This document shows positions 1,153-38,399 of a DNA stretch of 64,000 nt, piece after piece. Made by a program: the position numbers and the translations under genes. The notes beneath the pieces were generated by a model. That model saw only the letters and a program-made list of their open reading frames with translations. It had not been told where the DNA came from and did no database searches. The number at the start of each line of letters is the position of its first letter. The stretch's first letter is position 1. This DNA comes from a virus, in IMG/VR virus record IMGVR_UViG_3300048583_000034, positions 35,181-99,180 of that record; one strand, 5' to 3'.

Positions 1153-1302
1153 ATGGAGATACCATCAATTAATATTGATGGTAGACCACGTAAATTGAAG
1201 GCTAATTGGGGAGTAGATATCGAGAAAGACTTGATGTTGATGATGAGTATAGATATACAACAAGAGATAGATCGAGAGATAATTAATAAAATGGCTGGGT
1301 AG
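1153..1302 (+). CDS. short ORF resembling a segment of T4-like major capsid protein (possibly frameshift-fused to ORF 1067-1198)
   Basis: RKLKANW...EIDREII resembles gp23 RQLKAAY...EINREVV (recalled). Confidence 0.55.
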   Translation: MEIPSINIDGRPRKLKANWGVDIEKDLMLMMSIDIQQEIDREIINKMAG

Positions 1303-1366
1303 ACCAACGGTAGGAGTCAAGGGTCTTAGAAGCCCTCCAGTGTCGGTTCGAATCCGACCCCAGCTA
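1293..1366 (+). tRNA. tRNA-Leu(TAG), short variable loop
   Basis: AGGGT-CTTAGAA-GCCCT; T arm GTCGG-TTCGAAT-CCGAC. Confidence 0.88.
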
Positions 1367-1371
1367 CATAA

Positions 1372-1630: not shown

Positions 1631-1894
1631 ATGAAACTAGGAGATTTTAAAAAGGTTCCAATATCAGAAGCCATAAAAATACCAAGTGTTGGTGGTCATT
1701 ATGACTTAGTAAAAGATATGTGGTGGGGCGTGACAGATGACGAATGTATTCTGTATTACAGAGGATATTCTAGGCAATGTAACAGAAATAAAAGTATCAC
1801 AGAGTCAATCATAAATTCAGACACCCACCCAGCAACCAAGGTAATTTTTCTGGAGAGTGTTTGGGAGAAACATGATTGTAAAGATTACGAATAA
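1631..1894 (+). CDS. hypothetical protein
   Basis: ORF packed between previous ORF and tRNA-Arg. Confidence 0.7.
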   Translation: MKLGDFKKVPISEAIKIPSVGGHYDLVKDMWWGVTDDECILYYRGYSRQCNRNKSITESIINSDTHPATKVIFLESVWEKHDCKDYE

Positions 1895-1967
1895 GGATCG
1901 TTAGTAGACTGGATTATAACGTCTCTTTACGAAGGAGAAAAAAATGGTTCGATTCCATTACGGTCCA
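1895..1967 (+). tRNA. tRNA-Arg(ACG)
   Basis: TCTCT-TTACGAA-GGAGA arm. Confidence 0.88.
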
Positions 1968-1987
1968 CAATTGGGGATTGATGTAAT

Positions 1988-2062
1988 TGATGCGTAGTGT
2001 AACGGTTTAGCACCAGTGGTTTTGAACCACTTAGAGTATGGGTTCGATTCCCACCGCATCTA
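1988..2062 (+). tRNA. tRNA-Gln(TTG)
   Basis: AGTGG-TTTTGAA-CCACT arm. Confidence 0.88.
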
Positions 2063-2064
2063 CT

Positions 2065-2796
2065 TTACCCCCAATACCCTCTGGGTGGTTTGGTCAACCC
2101 TAATTTCTTAATATGTTTCTCAACAGCTTTATCGCTAACCCCTAATTCCTTCGCTATCTTAGTTGTTGGTTTACTCCACAATAATGATTTTAATTCCTCT
2201 GAGGAGGGCCAAATTATCTTTTCTCTTTTGGGGCCACGGCATTTGTTGCAAGACGTTGATAGTTTATGTTTTTTCTCACCACAATCACATAAAGTAATTT
2301 TCTTATTTTTTTTGCCAGCATATGAAGAAGTTTGTGTATGACAATTTGGACAAAGAAAACACAAGTTTTCTAAACGGTTATCGTTCGATATTCCATTTAT
2401 ATGTTCCAGTTGTAATGATAGTTGTTCGCCTAACCAAGATCCATCGTTGGAACATTTAACACATTTATAATCTACCAATTCAAATTTTACTAAATAAAGT
2501 TTAAGATTATATCTATTTCTTTCAGAGTTTTCAACCAACCAATTTTTAATAAAGTCTTCTTTTGACAATTCTCTCGTAAGATTCGATGCGTCTATTCTGG
2601 AAAGAAAATGAGAAGTTTCTAGATTCAGCTCAGATACTCTCTTTTTAACAATATGGAAGTTGTTTCCTTTGTTCTGTAAACCAAAATAATTCAAAACATC
2701 TTTCATGGATTTACTAGTTGCAACTAATTCGATAAATTTTTCATCTTCTAATTTCCAAATTTTTGATCTCTTCGCTCTTGATTTTATGGTAAGCAT
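2065..2796 (-). CDS. HNH homing endonuclease with C-terminal HTH
   Basis: LQLEHINGISNDNRLENLCFLCPNCH; TAAATA upstream. Confidence 0.92.
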   Translation of the reverse strand: MLTIKSRAKRSKIWKLEDEKFIELVATSKSMKDVLNYFGLQNKGNNFHIVKKRVSELNLETSHFLSRIDASNLTRELSKEDFIKNWLVENSERNRYNLKLYLVKFELVDYKCVKCSNDGSWLGEQLSLQLEHINGISNDNRLENLCFLCPNCHTQTSSYAGKKNKKITLCDCGEKKHKLSTSCNKCRGPKREKIIWPSSEELKSLLWSKPTTKIAKELGVSDKAVEKHIKKLGLTKPPRGYWG

Positions 2797-2830
2797 ATGT
2801 ATATTTAGTTCATCAGTGCTAACTTGTCAA

Positions 2831-2849
2831 TAAAACACTAGAACATAAT
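2831..2849 (+). promoter_or_regulatory. phage early-type promoter AAACACTAG-N2-(T/C)ANAAT driving second tRNA block
   Basis: TAAAACACTAGAACATAAT 8 nt upstream of tRNA-Ser. Confidence 0.75.
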
Positions 2850-2857
2850 CAAATAAA

Positions 2858-2950
2858 GGGTGTGTGGTCGAGTCCGGTTTATGGCACCTCACTTGAAATG
2901 AGGCGATGGGGTTAGTATCCTGTCCGCGAGTTCAAATCTTGCCGCACCCG
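2858..2950 (+). tRNA. tRNA-Ser(TGA)
   Basis: CCTCA-CTTGAAA-TGAGG; long variable arm; G73. Confidence 0.92.
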
Positions 2951-2954
2951 CATT

Positions 2955-3170
2955 ATGCTTAACGATAATAATAAGATATATGGTGATCCAAGAAGTGAGG
3001 AATCTATGAAACTTATTTCTAGTTTTCTCATAAAACATCACACAGATAAAGATGAAAATTCTTTGTGGGTGAGATTTAATCAACTGATGGGCAAAGCACA
3101 CGATCAAGAATTGGATCATAGGGCAACATGGAACTCATATCTAAGAGTCGTAGAAGAAAAAATGAAATAA
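2955..3170 (+). CDS. hypothetical protein
   Basis: ORF filling gap between tRNAs. Confidence 0.6.
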   Translation: MLNDNNKIYGDPRSEESMKLISSFLIKHHTDKDENSLWVRFNQLMGKAHDQELDHRATWNSYLRVVEEKMK

Positions 3171-3171
3171 A

Positions 3172-3243
3172 GGGGAATTGTTGTAATTGGTAGCAAAACT
3201 GGGTTACATCCAGCTAGTAAGGGTTCAAGTCCTTTATTCCTCA
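3172..3243 (+). tRNA. tRNA-Val(TAC)
   Basis: CTGG-GTTACAT-CCAG arm; T-loop TTCAAGT. Confidence 0.85.
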
Positions 3244-3245
3244 CA

Positions 3246-3360
3246 AACTAATAACTAGAGAGATCGACTAATCCGGTCGAGAAAATTAACGGAAAAGCTC
3301 TGCGGACGATGGTGAACAGTTGGAATCCTGACGAAAATTTAATGCCCGCATTATTAGTTT
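3246..3360 (+). ncRNA. unknown structured RNA (~115 nt)
   Basis: Closing stem AAACTAATAA/TTATTAGTTT fills the gap between two tRNAs; internal hairpins. Confidence 0.55.
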
Positions 3361-4465: not shown

Positions 4466-4732
4466 ATGACTACTACAAAATTAGAACTTGGCGACTATGT
4501 CGAATATAGGGATTACCTCTTTGAGGTGATGATGGATAAAGAGGGTAAGGGAAGATTGGAATTGGAACATACAAAAGATTGGTATTATGGTGAAAGAATA
4601 CCGATGAACGAAGTAGACCAATCCCAATGTATGGTGGTTAGAGATCATAAAAATTGGAAATGGTCTCCAAAGCAAAAAATGCATGGTTTCGGGTGGTCAA
4701 TAAATCCAAGATATCAATATATCCCAGCATGA
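4466..4732 (+). CDS. hypothetical protein
   Basis: Operonic ORF, ATGA overlap with next gene. Confidence 0.7.
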   Translation: MTTTKLELGDYVEYRDYLFEVMMDKEGKGRLELEHTKDWYYGERIPMNEVDQSQCMVVRDHKNWKWSPKQKMHGFGWSINPRYQYIPA

Positions 4733-5271
4733 AGTTCACACAACTCTTAAGAAGTGTTCTCTTAACTGAGAACTCCAAACCAAGATCTTATTCTTGTCTA
4801 ATGGTAGATTGCACAGACTTTGAAAAACACTTGAAAGTTATTCAAGATGGAATCGAGAAACAAGATCTATATGATGAAGAAGGATATGGTCTTGAGAAAG
4901 AACCACACATCACAGTTCTCTATGGGATTCATGAACAAGATCCAACAGTTGTAAAACAATCTTTGGATCTTGTTCCGGTTGAGTATGAACTCACTGGACT
5001 CTCATTATTTGAAAATGATAAGTATGATGTCCTCAAATGTTCAGTCAAATCCAAAGATCTAAAAGCTTTGAATAAGCAATGTTGTGAGAACCTAGAGTTC
5101 ACCAACGATTATCCTGATTATATCCCTCACCTAACGGTGGCATATTTGAATCCGGGTGCTGGTAAGAAATATGTTAAGACGAAGTCCGAAGGATTCGGTA
5201 AAGAATATAAGTCGGGAAAATTCATCTTCTCAAATAAAGATTCGAAGAAAACAAATTGGACTATCTCATAA
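4729..5271 (+). CDS. 2H phosphoesterase (LigT / T4 57B-Acb1 superfamily)
   Basis: Two HxT motifs PHITVLYG and PHLTVAY; start reassigned to ATG 4729. Confidence 0.85.
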   Translation: MKFTQLLRSVLLTENSKPRSYSCLMVDCTDFEKHLKVIQDGIEKQDLYDEEGYGLEKEPHITVLYGIHEQDPTVVKQSLDLVPVEYELTGLSLFENDKYDVLKCSVKSKDLKALNKQCCENLEFTNDYPDYIPHLTVAYLNPGAGKKYVKTKSEGFGKEYKSGKFIFSNKDSKKTNWTIS

Positions 5272-5293: not shown

Positions 5294-5827
5294 ATGTGGT
5301 ATCCAATCAATCCTCAATACGATAGAGGTCTCCCAATCAACGCCCATCCGGGTGCATTTGGAAATGCTCGTAAATATAACTTCCATGAAGGCATCGATCT
5401 TTATGGAAAAGAAGGAATGTTTGTTTATGCTATTCATTCTGGAGTAGTTGTTTCAAATGAAAGATTTACTGGTCCTTCTGTTGGCCACGATTGGTGGCTT
5501 GAGACAGACGCAGTGACGATCAAATCCGATACTGAATACTTTGTCTACGGAGAACTCAAGAGCGATTTAAAGGTTGGTGATGAAGTTAAATGGGGTCAAG
5601 TGATTGGGGAATTAGTTCCAGTCCTTCCACCTGAAAAAATTCGATCATACATTCCCCAACACTCGAATGTTATGCTTCACTTAGAAAAGTGGAACTTTAA
5701 ATATCCGGGTCAATGGAAAGCTTGGACAACCAGAGAAGATAGACCTGAATGGTTGGAAGATCCAACACCAGATCTTATTAATATCTTAACTAAAGCACAT
5801 CAAAAAGTATTTTTTCTGACGGTATGA
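5294..5827 (+). CDS. M23-family peptidase-like protein
   Basis: HEGIDL (HxxxD) and MLHLE (degenerate HxH); promoter 5269-5287 just upstream. Confidence 0.75.
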   Translation: MWYPINPQYDRGLPINAHPGAFGNARKYNFHEGIDLYGKEGMFVYAIHSGVVVSNERFTGPSVGHDWWLETDAVTIKSDTEYFVYGELKSDLKVGDEVKWGQVIGELVPVLPPEKIRSYIPQHSNVMLHLEKWNFKYPGQWKAWTTREDRPEWLEDPTPDLINILTKAHQKVFFLTV

Positions 5828-6114: not shown

Positions 6115-6764
6115 AAATTTTAATAACTAGCGGAGGATGCAAAGTCCCCATTGATGATGTGAGAAACATTGGAAACTTTTCATCTGGAAGATATGGTTCA
6201 TCTATAGCTGAACACTTTACAGATAAAGAAAATGTAGATATCATCTTCTTTCACGAAAGAGGAACTAACCATACACAATACGGCCCTGTGGATGTAGAGC
6301 TATATAATAATTCTCGTATAAGATTTATCGAGTATAAAGATTATTACGATTATCTTAAAGTAAAAGATCTTATCAAAGAAGAGCAACCAGACATCATTAT
6401 CTCCGCAGCGGCAATCTCTGATTACATCGTAGATAAAACTGAAGGGAAGATTTCTTCGGATGGTGATGAACTCGTTATCAGATTGAGGAAAGGTGAGAAA
6501 GTTATTAAAAGCTTTAGATCGCTCGCTCCAAACGCCATCATTGTAGGATTCAAACTTTTAGTTAGCCCTAATTCCGAGGAAGTTCAAAATGCTATCTCCA
6601 AAGTCTTCAAAGCTGAAGTTGATTATGTTGTCTTCAACGATTTAACCGAACTTCGAAAAGGAAATCAGAGAAGAGTAGCGATTGGAAAGTTTGATTCATT
6701 TTATAGCGAGATTCCAGAAGCCAAAGACTTAGTCGAGTTATTAATTAAAAGGGTTTACCCATGA
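6111..6764 (+). CDS. coaB: phosphopantothenate-cysteine ligase
   Basis: ITSGG..VPIDDVRNIGNFSSGRYG, AAAISDY, VGFKL. Confidence 0.9.
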   Translation: MKILITSGGCKVPIDDVRNIGNFSSGRYGSSIAEHFTDKENVDIIFFHERGTNHTQYGPVDVELYNNSRIRFIEYKDYYDYLKVKDLIKEEQPDIIISAAAISDYIVDKTEGKISSDGDELVIRLRKGEKVIKSFRSLAPNAIIVGFKLLVSPNSEEVQNAISKVFKAEVDYVVFNDLTELRKGNQRRVAIGKFDSFYSEIPEAKDLVELLIKRVYP

Positions 6765-17506: not shown

Positions 17507-19030
17507 TTACCTTAAGAGATTCTTCAACATCTGAGAATAAGCTTCTTGGAACGGTCCAGAAAGAATCAACCCAGCAATCTCTTTCATCCTTTGCTCATCT
17601 GGATCTTCTCCAGCGTTCAACGTCTCTAGAACATATTCGTTTAGAGCGTCAGTTATTGAGCGAAAGTGTGTCTTATCCTTTTGCAAGACCGGAAACCAAG
17701 TCATAAGTTTAGCCCCATCGAAATATTGCTTTAACTTAAGTCTCGTTTCGTCTCTGGTTCCACCAATACGTTGAACCTTCTCTTCTGCTCTAGCAATCTT
17801 AGCGTTGAATTCATCAGCGTTAAAATGTGCTGGTCCTCTGGAAGCTTCGTCGCAATATCCAACAGCTTTCACAACTTCCCATGCTGGGTCGTTAATAAGA
17901 GCAGTCAGAGTCTTGATGTTAAGTTTATCCAGATTATGAATAAGCATATGCTTCTCCACAGCAAATAGAATATGTTTCTTATCTTGGGGAGAGAGTTCCG
18001 AGAACTTTAACGTCCTGAAGATCCTATCCACGATAGGAACACCTGCTCCATCATGACCGTGATAGTTCGAGAAGCCATTATCCTTACGTCCTCTCGTAGT
18101 CGCTTTACCAAAGTCATGGAAAAGAACGGCAAGGTTTATAACGGGATCAGTATATGGGGACACTTTCAAACATTCATAGATATGTCCCAGCACTTGAGCA
18201 TCACCTTCTGGATGATGTTGGGGATCATGATCGAATCCTTCCATAGCAGTAAACTCGGGAAGAATGTCGTGTAGAATGCCCGTCTCTTGTAACTTGTGTA
18301 GAAAGTTCGCCAGAGTCTTACCAGACTTCGCAGACTTATAAAACTCTTTGGAAATGCTTTCCTTGGAAATCGCCTCTGGATTAGATAACAAACTCTTTAG
18401 TTCGATAGCAGCTTGTTTGGTTCCTTCTTCAATATCGAAGCCCATCTTAGCAGCAAATCTAAAGACACGTAGAATTCTAGTGGCATCTTCCTGAAATCTC
18501 TTTTTTGGATCACCCACAGCACGCACCAGAGAGTTTTTCAAGTCCTCCAGACCACCCTGAAAGTCCACGATCTGTCCAGACGCATCCAGACCAAAGGAAT
18601 TGATCGTAAGGTCTCTACGCGCAGTGTCAGCTTCAAAGGAATCCGTCTCAGTGGAGACGTTGTTCTGTCTCCCGATGTCTCCCGAATCCGTTCTGAATTT
18701 CGCAAGGTCATACCAATAGTTTCCCCACTTAATTGTAAACACAGGTTGTAAATCATCCTTAGAGATATTTCTCATCTCATAAAGTTCTGATAACTTCTCC
18801 AGAGGAATATTGGTGGCCATATCCACATCATCAATTTCATTCCCCATAAGAAGATCTCTAGGAACCCCACCAACAATATAAATATCACCCTTTAGTTTTG
18901 ACTTGATATTCTTCATTAAATCAAGAGCAACTCTCAATTCTTCAGAAGATTCCACAGCTTTTATCCACTTGGCATCAAAGTCATCACCATACTTCTCTAG
19001 AAGCATATAGCGCAGTTTGTCGAATTTCAT
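17507..19030 (-). CDS. cca: class II tRNA nucleotidyltransferase (CCA-adding) with HD domain
   Basis: VGGVPRD..DVD, RRDLTINS, EDATRILR, HHPEG..H..HDFGK. Confidence 0.92.
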   Translation of the reverse strand: MKFDKLRYMLLEKYGDDFDAKWIKAVESSEELRVALDLMKNIKSKLKGDIYIVGGVPRDLLMGNEIDDVDMATNIPLEKLSELYEMRNISKDDLQPVFTIKWGNYWYDLAKFRTDSGDIGRQNNVSTETDSFEADTARRDLTINSFGLDASGQIVDFQGGLEDLKNSLVRAVGDPKKRFQEDATRILRVFRFAAKMGFDIEEGTKQAAIELKSLLSNPEAISKESISKEFYKSAKSGKTLANFLHKLQETGILHDILPEFTAMEGFDHDPQHHPEGDAQVLGHIYECLKVSPYTDPVINLAVLFHDFGKATTRGRKDNGFSNYHGHDGAGVPIVDRIFRTLKFSELSPQDKKHILFAVEKHMLIHNLDKLNIKTLTALINDPAWEVVKAVGYCDEASRGPAHFNADEFNAKIARAEEKVQRIGGTRDETRLKLKQYFDGAKLMTWFPVLQKDKTHFRSITDALNEYVLETLNAGEDPDEQRMKEIAGLILSGPFQEAYSQMLKNLLR

Positions 19031-35868: not shown

Positions 35869-35945
35869 TGGTGACTCGGATTGGATTCGAACCAATGACC
35901 CACGGTTTAGAAAACCGTTGCTCTATTCCACTGAGCTACCAAGCC
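35869..35945 (-). tRNA. tRNA-Arg(TCT)
   Basis: ACGGT-TTTCTAA-ACCGT; CCA. Confidence 0.92.
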
Positions 35946-37820: not shown

Positions 37821-37910
37821 TGGTTCATGTGAGGAGAATTGAACTCCCGTATACCTTGTAAGGGCTTTCCATTTATAAAACAGAGACTCTGACCACTGAG
37901 TTACACATGA
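37821..37910 (-). tRNA. tRNA with TAT anticodon (Ile) and long variable arm
   Basis: TCTGT-TTTATAA-ATGGA; 19-nt V region with CCTT/AAGG stem; CCA. Confidence 0.75.
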
Positions 37911-37917
37911 CATTTTG

Positions 37918-38025
37918 TGGGACCGCTTGGATTCGAACCAAGGACCAAGGGTTTATTTTAAACTATCTCAATTTAATGCGATAGCTCCAAAGAGACCCCT
38001 GCTCTAACCACTGAGCTACAATCCC
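37918..38025 (-). tRNA. tRNA-Ile2/Met(CAT) or Lys(CTT) with 35-nt hairpin insertion in anticodon loop
   Basis: Intact acceptor, D and T arms; 42-nt anticodon loop. Confidence 0.75.
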
Positions 38026-38287: not shown

Positions 38288-38399
38288 TGGTATGCGCGGT
38301 GGGACTCGAACCCACAGATTACAGATTTTTTGGAATGGATTCTAATTAAGTATCCACTCGGAAAAAGTCTGCTGCCTATACCAATTCGGCTACGCGCAC
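38288..38399 (-). tRNA. tRNA-Leu(TAA) with 35-nt hairpin insertion in anticodon loop
   Basis: GCCGAATTGGTATAGGCAGCAGACTT[35 nt]AAAATCTG; CCA. Confidence 0.8.

Follow-up and report, generated by a model that had tools for sequence, protein, structure and literature searches.

Almost all bacteria read AUA, alone among the sense codons, only after the essential enzyme TilS has rewritten a base of the tRNA. A phage tRNA gene that already encodes the anticodon UAU, and that carries an enlarged variable region as well, raises the question of what such a tRNA reads, which amino acid it carries, how the phage came by it, and what the additional arm is for. The gene lies in a stretch of viral DNA of 64,000 nucleotides (hereafter the window), the right-hand part of a viral record that is 99,180 bp long and that CheckV estimates to be 48% complete. 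Among the proteins of this record are a major capsid protein, a portal protein, and a tail-sheath stabiliser, all of T4 type. ARAGORN identified 16 tRNAs in the window, including the 90-nt tRNA-Ile(tat) at 37821-37910 (-), here called tRNA(UAU). When introns were allowed, it identified 28 tRNA genes in the record, including Ile(gat), three CAU tRNAs (a possible fourth is located at 37917-38025), and an amber-reading CUA tRNA. The 156 crude ORFs contain 387 ATA codons, corresponding to 13.4 per thousand codons and 18% of the Ile codons. The ORFs surrounding the gene have no Pfam or PHROG function, and no aminoacyl-tRNA synthetase was seen in the 99-kb record at its 48% completeness.

The tRNA(UAU) is a genuine, well-formed, and conserved AUA-reading phage tRNA (Table 1). 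The tRNA model RF00005 matched 37824-37910 (-) with 51.2 bits (E 4.6e-8 for the whole window), the minimum free energy (MFE) fold is a five-armed cloverleaf, and the canonical 7-nt anticodon loop has U33, A37, and A38. The UAU anticodon and the 19-nt variable region reported in the initial annotation were thus borne out by ARAGORN, Rfam, and the MFE fold. The folding-energy z-score is only -1.14, and the case for the gene is therefore based on tRNA models and comparative data, not on thermodynamics. Inspection by eye ruled out an alternative register of the anticodon, UUA (ochre-reading), which would leave two mismatches in the shifted stem.

Table 1. Positions of the tRNA(UAU) gene, its parts, and other tRNA genes discussed in the text (numbering of the window).
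Feature	Position	Strand	Support
tRNA(UAU), 90 nt	37821..37910	-	ARAGORN; Rfam, 51.2 bits; MFE cloverleaf; leave-one-out family model R2, 78.5 bits
tRNA(UAU), acceptor stem, 7 bp	37904-37910 with 37825-37831	-	
tRNA(UAU), D arm: 4-bp stem, 8-nt loop with GG	37886-37901	-	
tRNA(UAU), anticodon arm: 5-bp stem with two G-U pairs, loop UUUAUAA	37868-37884	-	
tRNA(UAU), anticodon UAU (ATA on the + strand) in loop UUUAUAA	37875..37877	-	
tRNA(UAU), variable region, 19 nt	37849..37867	-	
tRNA(UAU), variable-region hairpin: 3-bp stem GCC/GGU	37853-37865	-	MFE fold; kept in family alignment A2
tRNA(UAU), hairpin loop CUUACAA, 7 nt	37856-37862	-	
tRNA(UAU), T arm: 5-bp stem, loop UUCAAUU	37832-37848	-	
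tRNA(UAU), A73	37824	-	
tRNA(UAU), encoded CCA	37821-37823	-	
Upstream neighbour of tRNA(UAU), 6 nt away; 35-nt hairpin insert in anticodon loop (about 37955-37991)	37917..38025	-	Rfam, 56.2 bits; ARAGORN with introns
tRNA(UAA)-type gene: class-I body, 5-nt variable loop, 35-nt insert (38330-38364) after U34	38288..38399	-	Rfam, 53.1 bits; ARAGORN
tRNA-Arg(UCU)	35869..35945	-	ARAGORN, Rfam
tRNA-Leu(UAG), 75 nt, 5-nt variable loop	1293..1367	+	ARAGORN

The initial annotation had set a class II-like arm on an Ile-type tRNA against two Leu tRNAs with 5-nt variable loops, as though the two had exchanged arms. The short loops are real, both in Leu(tag) at 1293-1367 and in the tRNA at 38288-38399, and the short tRNA-Leu(UAG) is conserved at 74 nt in sister phages. 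However, the framing is misleading because the body of the tRNA(UAU) is of class-I type and its arm is a short, conserved hairpin, and because short-arm Leu tRNAs are known in bacteria, being documented in Streptomyces (PMC6614811). Long arms are present in the phage, since the variable regions of its three Ser tRNAs measure 18-22 nt, but these Ser tRNAs have a class II layout, which the tRNA(UAU) lacks. Assignment of the tRNA(UAU) to the bacterial class II tRNAs (Leu, Ser, Tyr) was rejected because their 3-bp D stem and enlarged D loop are absent; the D stem has 4 bp, the D loop 8 nt, and the variable stem 3 bp. Across the phage clade, conserved ‘Leu’ tRNAs of 74-76 nt do without a long variable arm (window 1293-1367 (+); L021, 3683-3756; L022, 6925-6998). 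Short-arm ‘Leu’ tRNAs also occur in a Verrucomicrobiales array that holds the same type of tRNA(UAU) (L354, at 5574-5649, 6167-6242, and 6344-6418), where odd T loops (TGCGA/TGCAA) and D loops lacking GG occur in some copies.

Relatives of the tRNA(UAU) were found outside the phage. A scan of a genome collection for the arm type of the window returned 38 stretches, 10 of which contained an 88-92-nt tRNA(tat), in Lachnospiraceae, Clostridia, Ruminococcus, Eubacterium, Bacillota, Paludibacteraceae, and Verrucomicrobiales. The copy in the Verrucomicrobiales metagenome-assembled genome (MAG) is one base off the 19-nt variable region of the window and has nearly the same D arm, and a viral homologue (L273), obtained from a scan without a fixed hairpin, has an arm almost identical to that of the window. 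In an alignment of 11 sequences (A2), 97.3% of cells pair and 18 of the 24 pairs show double changes, a level reached by none of 500 shuffles. The acceptor and T stems covary heavily, as do all five pairs of the anticodon stem, and C26, A44, and the CC/GG pairs of the hairpin are invariant. The loop letters C-U-x-A-C-A-A were set by the search pattern in nine of the 11 members, leaving the window and L273 as free observations, and the CC/GG pairs were not fixed. The family features present in the window tRNA are C26, A44, C47-G57, C48-G56, the 7-nt loop C-U-N-A-C-A-A, and A73. A model built without the window (R2, from alignment A3) gave the window tRNA 78.5 bits (E 2e-16), with GAU-type and ordinary tRNAs at no more than 58 bits, and membership is therefore established independently of model building. 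By these comparisons, the tRNA(UAU) is classified as a member of a conserved family that occurs both in phages and, across several bacterial phyla, in accessory tRNA arrays.

The distribution of this family is sporadic in cells. A further model (R1), applied with stricter filters, identified no further member among 150 additional Lachnospiraceae genomes or among another 150 from the phylum. Wherever examined, its members lie in dense tRNA arrays, e.g., 23 tRNAs in 3 kb; in two cases the tRNA(UAU) directly follows an ileX-like tRNA(CAU), and tRNA-Arg(UCU) often adjoins it in arrays elsewhere. A 151-nt contig from run X10 matches window positions 37823-37915 without differences and has unrelated flanks on both sides, with the 3' end of another tRNA upstream, which means that the same gene is present in another genomic context. 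As a member of a mobile tRNA family, the tRNA(UAU) was probably gained horizontally. Run X10 may represent RNA. Expression of the tRNA(UAU) itself is presumed. Scans of viral and metagenome contigs with the exact loop pattern yielded no orthologue and only an odd 84-nt tRNA-like gene with a poor anticodon stem (L071/L078). These loci belong to another large, low-GC phage and harbor two adjacent tRNA-like genes with weak T stems (L071, 387-470; L078, 977-1058 and 1488-1571), one with an 11-nt insert in the anticodon loop and the other with a 15-nt variable region, a UUUAUAA loop, and a poor anticodon stem. A 91-nt tRNA-like gene with the variable hairpin loop CUUACAA and a poorly paired anticodon arm was observed in a MAG labelled as an uncultured archaeon (L325, 139-229 (-)). 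Similarity of the variable arm to the Leu(UAA) tRNA of L004 and to phage Ser tRNAs was dropped as evidence of ancestry after the true family had been found.

Phage tRNA(UAU) genes carry a further type of extra arm. A viral scan requiring GATA in the arm returned at least 121 stretches, and a 90-94-nt tRNA(tat) was present in 70 of the 80 loci fetched. A viral scan that fixed only the anticodon loop, arm length, and T loop returned 80 loci, 29 with tRNA(tat), and GAT was found in the arm of 25 of its 28 long-arm tRNA(tat) genes, in loops such as CAGAUUA and CUGAUAA; L273 is one of the three exceptions. The long-armed CAU tRNAs of two sister phages (G002 and G003) are also of the GAU type, with loops UUGAUAG and UGGAUAA, and no loci other than L003 and L004 were recovered by a strict pattern for their type. 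The GAU-type family is larger than the CUNACAA family, spans about 88-96 nt with a modal length of 90 nt, and has hairpin loops of 5-7 nt. Both comprise 7/5 tRNAs of about 90 nt with an Ile-type anticodon and a variable-region hairpin bearing a 7-nt anticodon-loop-like loop, and both occur in phages and mobile arrays. They differ in the displayed triplet, which is G-A-U (rarely G-A-C) in the GAU-tipped family and N-A-C (UAC in the window) in the other, and in the hairpin stem, which covaries in the former and has fixed CC/GG closing pairs in the latter. Membership of the window tRNA in the GAU-tipped family was rejected, as there is no GAU anywhere in its 19-nt region. The window tRNA is a second, valine-loop-like type of extra-arm phage tRNA(UAU). 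Extra-arm tRNA(UAU) genes are common in phages. The initial annotation had named commonness in related phages as part of what would refute its reading, and in a broad sense this holds, but the type found in the window is present in none of the five closest relatives examined.

The enzymes ValRS and IleRS are closely related members of class Ia, and the tip of a variable arm is distant from the site at which synthetases of this class bind the anticodon. Eleven nucleotides of the window hairpin (CCCTTACAAGG) are identical (11/11) to the loop CUUACAA and the two closing C-G pairs of the E. coli valT anticodon arm. Across the family, the position equivalent to the wobble base is U, C, G, or A and is followed by A-C, although the A-C is largely imposed by the search pattern. 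The anticodon determinants are G34-A35-U36 for IleRS and A35-C36 for ValRS (partly after PMC9976931). The triplet of the window hairpin is of the ValRS type (N-A-C), not the Ile type (G-A-U), and if the hairpin guides charging, valine would therefore be favored. Our working guess is that the hairpin is a conserved tag bound by a protein, either a synthetase or a wobble-modifying enzyme, and that it aids a tRNA with a poorly recognised anticodon. It is quite improbable that the two loops divide the work as two anticodons, with UAU facing the ribosome and the mimic in the variable arm (G-A-U or N-A-C) facing a class Ia synthetase; the N-A-C type would then be handled by ValRS, either as programmed AUA-to-Val or as ValRS capture. 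If true, such a division would make a mobile tRNA(UAU) chargeable in hosts whose IleRS rejects UAU. That two families have each fixed a hairpin with a tRNA-Ile- or tRNA-Val-like loop points to an undescribed recognition device on a textbook molecule. In the literature searched, including PMC8421152, PMC5389517, and PMC8450103 and supplements aside, no description was found of either hairpin type or of an extra-arm tRNA-Ile(UAU).

Sister phages were located with a UvrD-type helicase gene 6.6 kb from the tRNA(UAU) as the anchor, by which 18 viral loci were retrieved and five records examined (G001-G005). G001 (complete; helicase identity 77%) has a 76-nt tRNA(CAU) directly after a TilS-like gene. 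The complete G002 (about 65%) has a long-armed tRNA(CAU) of 94 nt with TilS about 0.8 kb away, and the complete G003 (about 67%) has a long-armed tRNA(CAU) of 92 nt, with no TilS found. No TilS was found in G004 either (57% complete; about 66%), which has an ordinary 75-nt tRNA(UAU), or in G005 (96% complete; about 56%), where no AUA decoder was seen in the parts examined. Protein matches showed that the tRNA cluster of the window is flanked by genes collinear with G001, in which the syntenic block comprises tRNA(CAU), TilS, an endonuclease-like insertion, and an insert-bearing tRNA-Leu(UAA). The clade thus keeps an AUA decoder at the locus in several forms, and among the clade forms examined UAU and a long arm are combined only in that of the window. 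With U34 encoded in the gene, no lysidine is required, and TilS (PF01171) had no match in the 99-kb record, although at 48% completeness the gene could be in the missing half; both observations support the independence from TilS proposed in the initial annotation. Because sister phages have tRNA(CAU) at the same locus, two of them with a phage TilS, the tRNA(UAU) most likely provides TilS-independent AUA decoding. Phages and mobile arrays with a ready-made UAU decoder would thereby sidestep the dependency on TilS.

Among cultured phages, blastn with the tRNA(UAU) gave only partial matches (E 0.8), and no cultured relative of the phage exceeded 39% helicase identity. Nothing relevant was obtained by blastn with 7.9 kb around the tRNA(UAU), and the neighbouring 269-aa ORF had no relative locus in viral contigs. 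TilS-like genes (PF01171; 120 and 87 bits) lie beside tRNA(CAU) in the sister phages L001 (about 1800-3300) and L003 (3587-5062). In L001, an opposite-strand endonuclease-like ORF is located between the duplicated 3' end of a tRNA-Leu and TilS, and in L003 an HNH-like ORF is located between the tRNA and TilS.

The amino acid assigned to ATA was examined by comparing the phage ORFs with G001-G004 by tblastn, taking the best match of each at ≥35% identity and tallying the residue opposite each codon. Of 359 aligned ATA codons, 53.8% were opposite Ile, 10.9% opposite Leu, and 13.6% opposite Val, compared with 59.7%, 11.4%, and 14.1% for ATT (1229 codons) and 59.1%, 10.5%, and 14.0% for ATC (1186 codons); Leu codons were opposite Leu in about 65-67% of cases. 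At sites where at least three relatives agreed, ATA corresponded to Ile in 29 of 38 (Leu 3, Val 3), ATT in 93 of 106, and ATC in 105 of 124. Judged from these alignments, ATA is an isoleucine codon in this proteome, although the test reports what ATA sites are selected for and not what the tRNA(UAU) inserts, since AUA could also be decoded by host tRNA-Ile2 and by as many as four CAU-type tRNAs of the phage.

The nearest bodies to the tRNA(UAU) are the Ile(GAU) tRNAs of the clade, followed by the syntenic tRNA(CAU), but the ranking is shallow, as the phage's own Ser(GGA) shares 30 of 49 core positions compared with 28 of 49 for Ile(GAU). The tRNA(UAU) has A73 and U12-A23 in common with the E. 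coli Ile identity set (PMC9976931), from which it departs at 4-69 (U-A, not C-G) and at 29-41 (U-G, not C-G). The non-standard charging suggested in the initial annotation found no support, in that ATA codons behave as Ile in the orthologue alignments and the body is closest to Ile tRNAs, but the valine-like loop of the hairpin leaves it some probability. With 29 of the 38 agreeing ATA sites being Ile, isoleucine is the best reading of the charge, and we place the probability that the tRNA(UAU) carries isoleucine at roughly 0.6. The tRNA(UAU) would thus act as a functional elongator that reads AUA through its gene-encoded UAU without TilS and that the host IleRS loads with isoleucine. It would have arrived by horizontal transfer, in a small cluster where sister phages hold tRNA(CAU), and its hairpin, borne on a class-I, Ile-like body, would serve as a protein-binding tag.

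Two alternatives concern the amino acid itself. The hairpin may be a second, synthetase-facing anticodon that recruits ValRS, such that valine is placed at AUA as a deliberate or a tolerated Ile-to-Val change. This would fit the 11 of 11 nucleotides shared with the valT loop and its two closing pairs, the wobble-equivalent U/C/G/A with A-C kept, which mirrors the four-fold valine box, the G-A-U determinant set of IleRS displayed by the sister family, and A73, which suits both enzymes. However, ATA is not richer in Val than the other Ile codons (13.6% versus 14.1% for ATT and 14.0% for ATC, and 3 of the 38 unanimous sites), the invariance of A-C comes mostly from the search pattern, the tip of the variable arm is remote from the anticodon site of the synthetase, and the real anticodon has U36 and not C36; valine at AUA is thus quite unlikely. 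It is far less plausible still that a long-arm tRNA with an Ile anticodon arose from tRNA-Leu(UAA) by one anticodon change and inserts leucine at AUA, even though the nev-tRNAs offer a precedent (PMC3333845), UAU is one change from UAA, A73 is present, and, by eye, two short blocks of the variable region resemble the corresponding region of the L004 tRNA-Leu(UAA). The D arm is of class I (4-bp stem, 8-nt loop), the 15-48 pair is G-C and not the A15-U48 of E. coli tRNA-Leu (PMC6614811), the family relatives are all UAU tRNAs, ATA sites have 10.9% Leu against about 65% at Leu codons, and the phage Leu tRNAs themselves have no long arms.

Other explanations dispense with decoding or with function. 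A role as a decoy or sponge that engages a synthetase or a host anticodon nuclease, or as a regulatory RNA, would be in keeping with the anticodon-loop inserts of two neighbouring tRNAs, with a hairpin that is conserved in sequence beyond its pairing, as for a protein-binding site, and with the sporadic and mobile nature of the family. We consider such a role unlikely, as the decoding features are intact, all five pairs of the anticodon stem covary, the 7/5 acceptor-T geometry, A73, and encoded CCA are retained, and the family occurs in ordinary tRNA arrays beside other decoders of A-ending codons. The five closest relatives have no orthologue with such an arm, and the two G-U pairs in the anticodon stem and the z-score of -1.14 could likewise indicate a decaying tRNA gene with junk in its variable loop, but the strong covariation of the family, the identical copy in a different genomic context (the X10 contig), and a hairpin one base from that of the Verrucomicrobiales MAG make decay very improbable. 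An isoleucine-carrying elongator thus remains the preferred reading.

Several known systems share features with this tRNA. TilS-independent tRNA-Ile(UAU), or ‘tRNA-Ile3’, is described for Mycoplasma mobile, Bifidobacterium, Neorickettsia, and Lactobacillus (PMC8450103, PMC9976931; see also PMC8007984 on this kind of tRNA). It has the gene-encoded UAU, A37, A38, A73, and absence of lysidine in common with the window tRNA, which differs in being phage-borne and accessory and in its conserved 13-nt variable-region hairpin. The nematode nev-tRNA-Ile(UAU) shares the long variable arm and UAU but is tRNA-Leu-derived and Leu-charged (PMC3333845), whereas the window tRNA has a class-I D arm, an Ile-like body, and Ile-like ATA sites. 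The allo-tRNAs, a group in which UAU predominates, share the long variable arm and mobile contexts but have 8/4 or 9/3 acceptor/T stems, a long tRNA-Sec-like D stem with a tetraloop, and G73 or U73 (PMC5389517). Identity with an allo-tRNA was rejected, as the window tRNA is 7/5 with an ordinary D arm and A73. The tRNA-Ile of T4 is likewise a phage's own AUA decoder within the tRNA cluster of a T4-like phage, but it has a CAT anticodon and a short variable loop, and on account of that anticodon it depends on host TilS. If the hairpin of the window tRNA directs charging or modification, it would represent natural identity elements moved off the anticodon, with use for genetic-code engineering and for cross-host mobile tRNAs; if it is inert, a new and well-documented subfamily of AUA-reading phage tRNAs has nonetheless been described.

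The two neighbouring tRNA genes with anticodon-loop inserts also bear on the locus. The gene at 37917-38025 has the anticodon CUU if its insert is placed after nucleotide 36 and CAU if it is placed after nucleotide 34, and ARAGORN called it as Lys(ctt). Its 5' half matches E. coli tRNA-Ile2(CAU) genes best (27/30 nt), with an identical D arm and variable loop, but comparison of the whole body is ambiguous. On sequence similarity, it may be an interrupted tRNA-Ile2 beside its UAU replacement. The gene at 38288-38399 has the anticodon UAA once the 35-nt insert, which the initial annotation did not mention, is omitted. A contig from run X2 joins 38329 to 38365 without the insert, giving the loop CUUAAAA and the anticodon UAA, and it is probably a relative, as the side of the joint is 29 nt; a contig from run X1 holds a CAA homologue. 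Hairpin inserts of 35-39 nt, directly after anticodon base 34, recur in tRNA genes of the clade (38 nt in L001, L002, and L006, 39 nt in L007, and 35 nt in L008). They are far below the size of group I introns, and in the literature searched, supplements aside, no account of 35-39-nt anticodon-loop inserts in phage tRNAs was found.

The phage genome encodes further functions related to tRNA. A nucleotidyltransferase of the CCA-adding/poly(A)-polymerase family is located at 17507-19030 (-) in the window, and an encoded CCA is absent from several of the phage tRNA genes. A 2H phosphoesterase (2'-5' RNA ligase/Acb1-like) is located at 4654-5271 (+), just after the main tRNA array. The amber-reading tRNA(CUA) is kept in the phage (C1, 31513-31584, outside the window) and in three relatives (L021, 7160-7233; L022, 2942-3014; L024, 637-711), and TAG serves as the stop codon in only 7 of the 156 crude ORFs of the phage.
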